From NCBI RefSeq assembly GCF_013167455.1, contig NZ_CP038328.1: a stretch of 64,000 nucleotides of DNA; one strand, written 5' to 3'. Position numbers: made by a program. Shown one piece after another: positions 9,001 through 12,000 of this stretch. This DNA comes from Escherichia coli O157:H7 (GTDB taxonomy: Bacteria > Pseudomonadota > Gammaproteobacteria > Enterobacterales > Enterobacteriaceae). Position 1 is the first letter of the stretch; each line of letters begins with the position of its first letter.

Positions 9001-12000
9001 TCAGCACGTTAAACCGCTCACGCATCATGATTTCGGTGTCAGATGCCAGACGATGGCCACAGAACAGGTAAAGACTTCCGGCAGGTTTCAGCACCCGCCA
9101 GAACTGCGCAAGACACTGGTCCAGCCACTTCAGGTAATCTTCATCACCCGCCCACTGGTTATCCCAGCCCTCGGGTTTCACTTTGAAGTACGGCGGGTCC
9201 GTGACTATCAGGTCAACAGAATTTTCGGGTAACGACCGCATAAATTCCAGGCAGTCGGCGTTGATTAACTCACAACTGGATATTTTTACAGTATTAAGCA
9301 TGGATCATTAAGCCTGTCTCTGATAGGCTCATTCTGCTTTTGCGCAAAGCAGTGGGCCTGAGGTTTGCTTGTGAACCCAACGCATGAGCAGATGGCTGGT
9401 GGGTGCCCCTTACACCCACCAGCCGCCCATTTACCACAAATAAAAAAGCCTTCAGGACTGAAGGCGTCTGTAACAACCAAACTGATAGTCTGCCAGACCC
9501 GCCATAACCAGCTGGGTCAGTATTAACTGGCAGCGTTCGCGTGAAAGGTAAGTATTCTGCGCAATCTCCCCGACTGTCGCCGGGTCGGTAACGCTTAATT
9601 CATTAAACACCACTCTGGCGGTTTCTGTCATATCCTGCTGTTTCAGCATGTCTTTTTCCCTTTTCCGGTTAACGTGACACACCAATAACTCTTGTCGAAA
9701 AAGCCAGCAACCTGAAAGAACGGTATTAATAACCACCAGCGAATTTATTGCGCTGCTGTATATTACGGACACAAAAAAACCACCTTCCGGTGGCTTCCTT
9801 GTGCGAAAAAACTTGCATTTCGCCTCGCGATACAGCTTTGCGAAGCTTACAGGAATTCAAGCTGTTTCTGCGTAAAAAAGCAAGCTTTTTTTATCGAAAT
9901 GAATCGTGCATAGGTACATAAAGCATGTGTTCAGCCACGGCTAACCAACCTGCAATACGTTTCTCACATGTGCTGAAACACCATTCCGGGTGAGTACGAT
10001 TTAAACATTCTGCCATTTTTCTCTTACTCATTCCCCGTCCTTCGTACCTTTGCCGGAGAATATTGATTAGCCCGGGATATTCCCCAAGCACCTCACTGAT
10101 AACGCGATCAATAATCAACGCCTCTGTGTCTGTACAATGTGACAACCAGCTCTTCTGCTTCCCTCTGGTCATATCCCGAAAAAATGCCTCAAGTTCCGGT
10201 TTTTCCAGCCCGGATTTCTTCATGCTGCGTAAAACCTCATTAACTGCTGTTTTCGTCAGCTTTTTCGAAACCAGTAACCGGTTAAACATATTTCCGGATT
10301 TACCCCCACCGATATACGACCACCGCCCCCACATCCGTAATTTCCCCTGGATCCAGACTGCTTCCAGCGTGTTCAGGCGTAAATGTTCGCCGCTTTTGCC
10401 TGTAATTTCCGGATATATCATATTTACGCTCACTCACTCTCAATTTTGTAAATCTTCACACCCAGCCGTCCACCAGATACTGGCTGACCACGTACAATAT
10501 TGATTTCATCAAACTGCTCATCGTCCATTAACACTCCCGCATGCGTCAGCGCATCCAGCGGTGCTTTCAGAATATTGTCCAGGTCACGACGACGCTTATC
10601 CGGTGGCTCTGCAATAATTTTTATTGCCAGCCGTCCGGACAGGCTTAATTTCAGTCGCTGCTGGCGAACAATAAGCACCACTGCCCGGCGATAACGCTCC
10701 CCGGCTTTTGATACAAAATATGTGCTGCCACGGCGTCGCCAGTAAGTGTTCACCGTCGGCGGGTAAGGTAAAACCAAATCTATGAGCATCAGTCACCTCT
10801 TTTACCCGAGCACGCCAGTCGCAAAGGCGTGATCAAGAAAACGAAAAATTAAATCAACCTGGGAACCATGCTTTTCTTCGAACGCCAGCGGATCCGCATG
10901 AAGCTCGTTGTGATGCTCCCGACACAGCGGTAGCGTGAAAATATCGTGGGATTTTGTTCCCATTCCGCCCTGACCATGACCAATCAGATGATGAGGATCG
11001 TCCGCTGGCTTACCACAACACGCACACGGCTGTGTCTTTACCCAGCGTGTGTATTTCTCATTTACCCAGCGGCGACGTTTAGGTCGTTTCATGAAGGATT
11101 CCGGAGACTCCGGATCAACGGCAATGCTGACCACCGTCTTTTCCTGTGGTGGGTTTTGCTGGTGGGCGTGAGGCAGCGGCGCAAGATTTTTTGTGCGCTG
11201 CTTCAGTATGATGGTGGCGGTCTGCTCTCCCGGTACGATGTCGCTTTCACGGTACATTGAGCGGATTTTTTCCGCACGCAACCCCAGCGAACGACGTAAT
11301 ACCGCTTCCGGTAGCGCGTCCGCCACCTGATTGCGGACCGCCCACCAGGATAATTCAGCCAGAGATAATTCACGCTCCTGCGTACCGCTTATTGCGTGAC
11401 CGATGACGTCAATCATCCATGCTGACAGGTTTTGATGAGCAAGTTGCTCGAGTGATTCGGATGTCTGGTCACGCAGCTGGTTGTCGCAGTGCCAGCACAA
11501 CACCATTGCGCCGGTACCATAACGGTGAATAACGGTTTCACTGTGATGATAGTCACCATGAGGCCACTGGCAGGATTTGACATGACGCAACAGCCAGTCA
11601 GACAGTGCACCAGCGCCACCAACAGCACGAATCACACGCTCATTGCTGAAAAACGGCAGTAATGATTTATCCTCCGCCAGCGGCTGGCGAACGGCAGGGA
11701 CGATGCCGGACGGCAGACCGCGCATGCTTTTCGGCTCCGGCTCCACAAGCACTCGAGGGTTATGGAATACCTGCATGGATTCACGGCCTGGTTTAAGGAC
11801 CACCACCCCAAGTTCCGGTACCGGAACAGGTCGAAGTAATACCCGCACGTTACCTCCAGATGCGTTGCTGGAATGTGCGGGACGGACGCGGTGGGCGCTC
11901 GGAGTACGGCAGCCTGACGTAGATTATCCAGTGACGATAATCGAGGCTGAGGGCTTTCCTAAACTCATACCCACGTCTGCGGTAGTTCTGAATCAGCCAT

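Follow-up and report, generated by a model that had tools for sequence, protein, structure and literature searches.

How does RNA polymerase reach the late genes of a lambdoid prophage when two successive terminator hairpins stand between them and the antiterminator gene Q? The question is raised by a prophage of enterohaemorrhagic Escherichia coli in a 64,000-nucleotide stretch of E. coli O157:H7 DNA (NCBI RefSeq assembly GCF_013167455.1, contig NZ_CP038328.1), which in its full length is called the window below. The interval 9890..9443 of the window, between Q and a DNA methyltransferase (methylase) gene, holds a first terminator (T1), a small open reading frame (ORF) and a second terminator (T2). 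An original prediction, made from the DNA sequence, had placed this arrangement at the start of the late operon. We describe the sequence features of the interval, all of which lie on the minus strand, together with their conservation, the homology of Q to the phage 21 antiterminator Q21 and, for the small ORF, the evidence that it is coding and the fold of its product. We consider it likely that the locus is a late-gene regulatory cassette of the phage 21 type. The features on which this reading draws are the following, in minus-strand order.

9891..10421, minus strand: antiterminator Q gene, 176 amino acids from the ATG (RefSeq start), DUF1133 subfamily, identified by Pfam, PHROG and PDB fold matches.
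9855..9883, minus strand: inferred late promoter pR', with -35 TTGCTT at 9883-9878, a 17-nucleotide spacer and -10 TTGAAT at 9860-9855.
9844..9849, minus strand: candidate sigma-dependent pause element (SDPE) TAAGCT, a hexamer resembling a -10 where the transcript is predicted to start.
9819..9846, minus strand: nearly invariant core of 28 nucleotides, GCTTCGCAAAGCTGTATCGCGAGGCGAA, within the region transcribed first and a candidate for a Q-specific (qut-like) element.
9773..9794, minus strand: T1, a tR'-like intrinsic terminator, with stem CCACC-GGAA-GGTGG at 9793-9780 and T7 at 9779-9773.
9650..9772, minus strand: small-ORF leader of 123 nucleotides, with the conserved motif CTTGCTGG..AGAGTTAT..GT.TGTCA and an AGGG/GGGA ribosome-binding site.
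9452..9649, minus strand: small ORF of 65 codons, ATG at 9649-9647 and TGA at 9454-9452, for a stand-alone winged-helix protein.
9438..9465, minus strand: T2 hairpin plus T6ATTT, with GCCTTCA-GTCC-TGAAGGC at 9465-9448, T6 at 9447-9442, then ATTT.

Along the minus strand, genes for a DUF968 protein and RusA precede Q (10421..9891), and the interval is followed by the methylase gene (9301..8243) and two transfer RNA (tRNA) genes. After the tRNAs, the order continues with the small RNA (sRNA) genes STnc100 and AgvB, nanS-p, holin, lysozyme, Rz and terminase. With a homologue of the Q21 family upstream, and the methylase, tRNAs, holin, lysozyme, Rz and terminase downstream in the same orientation, this order supports the placement of the interval at the start of a Q-controlled late operon. 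The 1.2 kb around it are 100% identical to many O157:H7, O111 and other Shiga toxin (Stx)-producing E. coli chromosomes.

The Q gene ends with a TAA stop codon at 9893-9891. Its product matches Pfam PF06576 (DUF1133) with E=1e-110 and also, with 35.1 bits (cut-off 26), PF06530, the Q21/Q933W family, and falls into PHROG 753, ‘anti-termination protein Q-like’. A sequence search of the PDB returned Q21 as the best match, although a weak one (E=0.14). The AlphaFold2 model of Q has a predicted local distance difference test (pLDDT) value of only 73. When this model was compared with the whole PDB using Foldseek, the top six matches were all Q21 chains (probability 0.92-1.0), followed by noise, and the alignment with 6p18_Q covered 95 columns at 1.1 Å. 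Based on these profile and model matches, we treat the window Q as a distant member of the Q21 family. A search of the accessible literature found no paper mentioning DUF1133, and the DUF1133-type Q and its cis elements appear to be uncharacterised. The ydfT (quuQ) gene of the K-12 Qin prophage was considered as a comparator and rejected, as its protein and downstream region are unrelated.

The spacer between Q and T1 was compared in 11 distinct versions, from E. coli genomes and viral contigs. The versions share an A-rich tract (9890-9886 in the window, upstream of the predicted -35), an invariant TTG that would serve as the -35, a distance of exactly 17 nucleotides, usually with TG two bases ahead of the -10 hexamer, and TT[C/G]AAT. 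In the window the predicted -35 starts 7 nucleotides past the Q stop. After TT[C/G]AAT come five bases, the pause hexamer, kept as TA[A/C/T]GCT in all 11 versions, and a nearly invariant block GCTTCGCAAAGCTGTA[T/C]CGCGAGGCGAA, past which the versions diverge up to the terminator hairpin. Eight diverged variants were scored with a heuristic sigma-70 position weight matrix; TTGnnn-17-TT[C/G]AAT ranked first, in the same register, in all eight (heuristic scores 6.5-10). A promoter-like site thus lies between Q and the first hairpin, where the original prediction needed one.

The layout of this site is that of the annotated pR' of phage 21. For that phage we relied on the curated annotation of the late region in the complete genome record (GenBank OL657228) and on the Q21 structures 6P18 and 6JNY. 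The record places a -35 TTGACA 7 nucleotides after the Q stop, a 17-nucleotide spacer that holds the element to which Q binds (the QBE), and a -10 AACACT, followed by the start site, the SDPE TAAGCTG, a terminator, tRNAs and holin. The window follows this order at nearly the same spacing, with a Q of the same superfamily, a predicted -35 at 7 nucleotides, a 17-nucleotide spacer, TAAGCT at the predicted transcript start (identical to the hexamer of the annotated SDPE), an intrinsic terminator within 100 nucleotides, and tRNA and lysis genes beyond. The two cassettes also differ. The window Q, of the Pfam DUF1133 subfamily, is only about 18-20% identical to Q21, and the window lacks the TGAGCA direct-repeat QBE and has the 28-nucleotide invariant core after the pause hexamer. 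The terminated RNA would be about 75 nucleotides long, compared with about 50 in phage 21. Finally, the small gene, T2, the structured leader and the methylase are inserted ahead of the tRNAs in the window.

The 28-nucleotide core is kept in the 11 variants, whose flanks differ. It occurs only behind a Q of the DUF1133 type: a Q of this type is present at each of the 14 loci that carry the core, and the core is absent from all 77 loci lacking such a Q. This is the pattern expected of a Q-specific cis element, and makes the core a candidate for one. In E. coli O145 RM9467 (locus L004, 647-1560), we observed an ORF6N-domain gene inserted between the DUF1133 Q and the conserved promoter/core block. 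The block there follows the inserted gene and not Q, suggesting that it is a separate unit rather than a 3' untranslated region of Q, and that about 0.9 kb can come to lie between Q and its pR'.

T1 begins 97 nucleotides after the Q stop codon, in good agreement with the ‘about 100 bp’ originally given for the first, tR'-like hairpin. Its stem may include an extra G at 9794, and the hairpin energy is -12.5 kcal/mol, including flanking bases that add pairs to the stem. To place T1 and the small ORF in context, we used 87 distinct small-ORF regions from E. coli, Salmonella, Klebsiella, Citrobacter, Buttiauxella and viral contigs. A hairpin and T-run lie upstream of the small ORF in 85 of them, with 38 different hairpin sequences, and in 63 of these 85 the T-run begins 128-130 nucleotides before the ATG. 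T1 is found behind three Q families, namely PF06576 (DUF1133), PF06323 (Phage_antiter_Q) and PF06530 (21/933W type). Between phages with different Q genes, homology starts at or just past the T1 hairpin, suggesting that T1 marks the joint between a Q-specific module and a common downstream module.

The small ORF would be the first gene of the late transcript, and its substitution pattern identifies it as a real, conserved gene. Among 41 distinct 65-codon alleles, the variable sites fall 9/12/32 on the three codon positions, and codon differences are mostly synonymous (5093 versus 2125 non-synonymous). There are 333 homologues in several genera of the Enterobacteriaceae, typically of 63-65 amino acids, and the family corresponds to PHROG 331. 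Many of the homologues are named ‘TrmB family transcriptional regulator’. The AlphaFold2 model (pLDDT 91) consists of three helices and a beta-hairpin (H-H-H-beta-hairpin), and the folds closest to it are the winged-helix domains of IclR and MarR regulators and of O-methyltransferases; from the model, the protein is a generic winged-helix fold. The TrmB profile PF01978 stays below threshold on this ORF (17.4 bits versus a cut-off of 25.6, E=0.004), and an NCBIfam search gave no match. Given the sub-threshold profile and the generic fold, the database name ‘TrmB family’ is not established.

Automatic ORF lists give a 106-amino-acid reading from a GTG start (9772..9452). We rejected it as an annotation artefact, because the N-terminal extension is not conserved. 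The extension carries a 10-nucleotide deletion in phage Stx2a_WGPS2 and is 44 nucleotides shorter in the Klebsiella type, and these indels indicate that the 65-codon ATG start is the right one. Databases contain many N-extended versions of the small protein (72-106 amino acids, some called ‘lipoprotein’) that begin at an upstream GTG immediately beyond the T-tract of T1.

The leader of the small ORF has a motif whose core across genera, in the alignments, is CTTGCTGG..AGAGTTAT..GTATGTCA; with its variants, it reads CTTG[C/A]TGG..(10-11 nucleotides)..AGAGTTAT[C/T].GT[A/G]TGTCA. As a sigma-70 promoter the motif fails to score; the winged-helix protein could bind to it, or it could be part of an RNA structure.

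As originally described, the stop codon of the 65-codon ORF lies inside the second hairpin: TGA (9454-9452) forms the first three bases of the T2 3' arm. T2 has a 7-bp stem with four GC pairs and a 4-nucleotide loop (-10.5 kcal/mol). The stem folds in 18 of 18 sequence variants, with 6-8 bp and compensatory changes (for example CTTCA/TGAAG, CTCCA/TGGAG, CCTCA/TGAGG, CCCCA/TGGGG and CTCCC/GGGAG). As the 5' arm is coding, the 3' arm has followed its changes. In the E. coli lineage, including the window, T2 has a canonical U-tract (T6ATTT), which is weak (TTTCTGCTG) in the Salmonella and Klebsiella types. One Citrobacter-type contig, where another ORF follows, has a T8 run without a hairpin. Judged by its sequence, T2 in the window has every feature of an intrinsic terminator; elsewhere the hairpin is the conserved part, which may leave room for an additional role at the RNA level. 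A consensus scan listed both T1 and T2, on the minus strand, among 10 terminator-like sites in 4 kb, versus 4.2 +/- 2.2 in shuffled sequences, and a 589-nucleotide stretch of the locus has a fold z-score of -5.2 against shuffles. On comparative grounds, we regard T1 and T2 as selected features and not as products of chance.

From these features we infer promoter activity, a start site, pausing, a Q loading site, termination and read-through. Transcription would start near position 9848 from the promoter directly after Q (-35 at 9883-9878, -10 at 9860-9855), and RNA polymerase still holding sigma-70 would pause at the -10-like TAAGCT. Without Q, as in a lysogen, the polymerase would stop at T1 (9794-9773) and free an RNA with a predicted length of about 75 nucleotides. 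Q made after induction would load onto the paused polymerase at a Q-specific site, for which the promoter spacer and the invariant core (9846-9819) are candidates. The Q-modified polymerase would then pass T1, the small winged-helix gene, T2 and the structured leader to reach the genes for the methylase, tRNAs, lysis and morphogenesis. T2 would act as an ordinary gene-end terminator and present unmodified polymerase with a second barrier. By forming a nozzle on the RNA exit channel, Q21 keeps terminator hairpins from forming (10.1101/651190; PMC6606751), so any number of intrinsic terminators could be bypassed once Q is loaded. Both terminators would have to be read through to reach the methylase and tRNAs, in line with the original prediction. 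Passing several terminators is a textbook property of Q, and the arrangement is therefore not unusual.

Several observations weigh against this interpretation. A standard promoter scan found no site between Q and T1; it misses the predicted pR' because the -10 lacks an A at position 2, and the T in place of this near-essential base, in both TTGAAT and TTCAAT, is itself a departure from consensus. The gap between the -10 and TAAGCT is 5 nucleotides, compared with 7 in phage 21, making the start site uncertain by a few bases. No TGAGCA-type direct-repeat QBE is present between the -35 and -10, in the spacer TTTTACGCAGAAACAGC, within which only ATAAACTG is conserved among relatives. Also, outside the E. 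coli lineage the T2 U-tract is UUUCUGCUG. A Q of different specificity is expected to use a different binding site, for which the invariant core at 9846-9819 is a candidate. The negative scan and the non-consensus -10 would fit another scheme, in which the first hairpin merely terminates an early operon that ends with Q and the late promoter lies elsewhere. We consider this highly improbable, as the conserved promoter-like architecture matches the phage 21 pR' down to the pause hexamer, the core is confined to loci with a DUF1133 Q, and the block in RM9467 follows the inserted ORF6N gene instead of Q. Moreover, the scan finds no other promoter on the minus strand down to the tRNAs.

Two further explanations concern the small gene and T2. 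The small ORF might be an autonomous ‘moron’ with its own promoter in the 123-nucleotide leader and T2 as its own terminator, expressed in the lysogen without Q, with T1 and T2 as insulators. Its position between two terminators, the fixed geometry of the T-run/leader/ORF/T2 unit behind three unrelated Q families, and the cross-genus motif CTTGCTGG..AGAGTTAT..GT.TGTCA in the leader all speak for this idea. However, no promoter candidate recurs consistently in the leader from genus to genus. TCGACA-16-CACGTT, which ranks best in the E. coli type, has a heuristic score of 4.6, versus 6.5-10 for pR'; the standard scan finds none in the leader, and the candidate TTGCTG is deleted in phage Stx2a_WGPS2. 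We consider an autonomous gene unlikely, and it would in any case be compatible with Q-dependent read-through, supplementing that explanation and not replacing it. Alternatively, the T2 hairpin may serve mainly to protect a 3' end after processing, or to link translation of the small ORF to the methylase leader, and not as a terminator. Its stem is kept by compensation in every lineage, while outside the E. coli type the U-tract is reduced to UUUCUGCUG. The stop codon is always in the loop or 3' arm, where a terminating ribosome would melt or occlude the hairpin, and phages that lack the small ORF also have a terminator hairpin directly before the methylase leader. Against this, the 7-bp GC-rich stem and T6ATTT of the window form a standard intrinsic terminator, and terminators overlapping stop codons are common at gene ends. 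This role for T2, too, seems to us unlikely. Thus, we favour the Q-dependent late cassette. The locus is an uncharacterised (DUF1133) member of a well-known class of such cassettes, in an ordinary arrangement and in a stx-negative prophage.

Beyond T2, the cassette continues with the following features.

9299..9433, minus strand: conserved structured RNA leader of 135 nucleotides, directly upstream of the methylase ATG, with a 12-bp hairpin at 9423-9386.
8243..9301, minus strand: DNA methyltransferase gene (N6/N4), 352 amino acids, PF01555 (E=2e-43); RefSeq and Stx phage records also call it a DNA methyltransferase.
8202-8127, minus strand: tRNA with anticodon CAT, tRNA-Ile in RefSeq.
8046-7970, minus strand: tRNA-Arg TCT.

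The methylase leader was aligned across 29 distinct sequences from at least five genera (alignment A1), and across genera it is more conserved than the synonymous sites of the small ORF. Its 12-bp hairpin (9423-9386) has an energy of -28 kcal/mol, and the 3' arm varies solely by G.U-compatible changes or single bulges (UG15/UA14, GC25/GU4). In a second helix, pair 44:68 is UA12/CG11/AU6 and is broken in none of the 29 sequences, and two further pairs covary (CG15/UA7 and CG12/UA7). With a covariance model (R1), a single copy was detected in the window; in a contig with an additional ORF between the small gene and the methylase, the element lies next to the methylase. In two viral contigs without the small ORF, L134 and L136, the methylase leader RNA comes straight after a tR'-like terminator hairpin; a terminator hairpin thus immediately precedes the leader in all cases seen. 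A mini-ORF in the leader (ATG GGC GGC TGG TGG GTG..) was considered as a leader peptide and rejected, as it is not a conserved coding unit (6 codons in the window, 7 in the Klebsiella types and 47 in phiP27) and has no well-spaced Shine-Dalgarno sequence.

The methylase itself has no obvious Shine-Dalgarno sequence, and an invariant GATC lies just before its ATG. According to RNAalifold, the bases just before the ATG pair with a segment further upstream, which is in competition with the covarying helix. The candidate pairings (alignment columns 4-9/45-50, 42-47/65-70 and 57-67/122-133) appear mutually exclusive. It is conceivable that the alternative pairings would act as a translational switch that gates translation of the Shine-Dalgarno-less methylase. 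Possible inputs would be the act of translating the small winged-helix gene ahead of the leader, or the protein that this gene encodes.

Rfam contains no family for the pR'-T1 RNA, the small-ORF leader or the methylase leader. The only match, to the Rfam family P26 on the opposite strand, was below threshold (24 bits versus 36) and was treated as a chance hairpin match. We tentatively raise the possibility that the stretch from T2 to the methylase is a new cis-regulatory RNA of ~135 nucleotides that accompanies the orphan N6-adenine methylases of phages across enterobacterial genera and that, separately, the ~75-nucleotide pR'-T1 RNA is a StxS-like sRNA in lysogens. By analogy with StxS, the pR'-tR' RNA of the Stx phages Sp5 and Sp15, and with the lambda 6S RNA, the ~75-nucleotide T1-terminated RNA is probably made in lysogens (PMC7547250). 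Like these, it is a short late-promoter RNA predicted to end at tR' in lysogeny; unlike them, it is predicted from the sequence, and it has no sequence similarity to them or Rfam match. StxS differs in length, being 258 nucleotides processed to 74 nucleotides (PMC7547250), compared with the predicted ~75 nucleotides in the window. The methylase-leader RNA is the sole fresh element of the locus that might repay further work.

We also noted other features of the surrounding prophage. ARAGORN calls the CAT tRNA (8127-8202, minus strand) tRNA-Met, whereas RefSeq and the Stx phage records call it tRNA-Ile (ileZ type, presumably lysidine-modified). Rfam detects STnc100 at 7860-7652 on the minus strand (175 bits) and the anti-sRNA AgvB at 7591-7650 on the plus strand (56.6 bits versus a cut-off of 56). 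The two sit between the tRNAs and nanS-p, the position of stxAB in Stx phages. In the prophage early region, upstream of DUF968, RusA and Q, an IS3-family transposase orfB (296 amino acids; 12513-13403, minus strand) is inserted. For the plus-strand ORFs in the interval (9365-9526, 9403-9507 and 9748-9921), supporting evidence was found for none.

The prophage in the window contains no stx gene; Stx phages carry stx just after the tRNAs. Two of these, phiP27 (L23, L24) and Stx2a_WGPS2 (gp28, gp29), share with the window the series of terminator, leader, 65-amino-acid ORF, T2, structured leader, methylase and tRNAs, at 92-96% identity. They differ in having other Q and pR' types upstream and stxAB after the tRNAs, where the window has STnc100, AgvB and nanS-p. 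In papers on the pR' regions of Stx phages, neither the small ORF nor T2 is described. One survey found a methylase next to stx2e, on its upstream side, in 71% of porcine strains (PMC12571312).

Q/pR'/tR' cassettes set the timing of lambdoid prophage late genes, among them Shiga toxin in Stx phages. The module of terminator, winged-helix gene, T2, structured leader, methylase and tRNAs described here is the sequence immediately upstream of stx2 in phages such as phiP27 and Stx2a_WGPS2. For this reason, the number and strength of its terminators, as well as any RNA element within it, would matter for basal toxin expression. The conserved putative promoter, the pause hexamer and the 28-nucleotide core provide concrete experimental targets.

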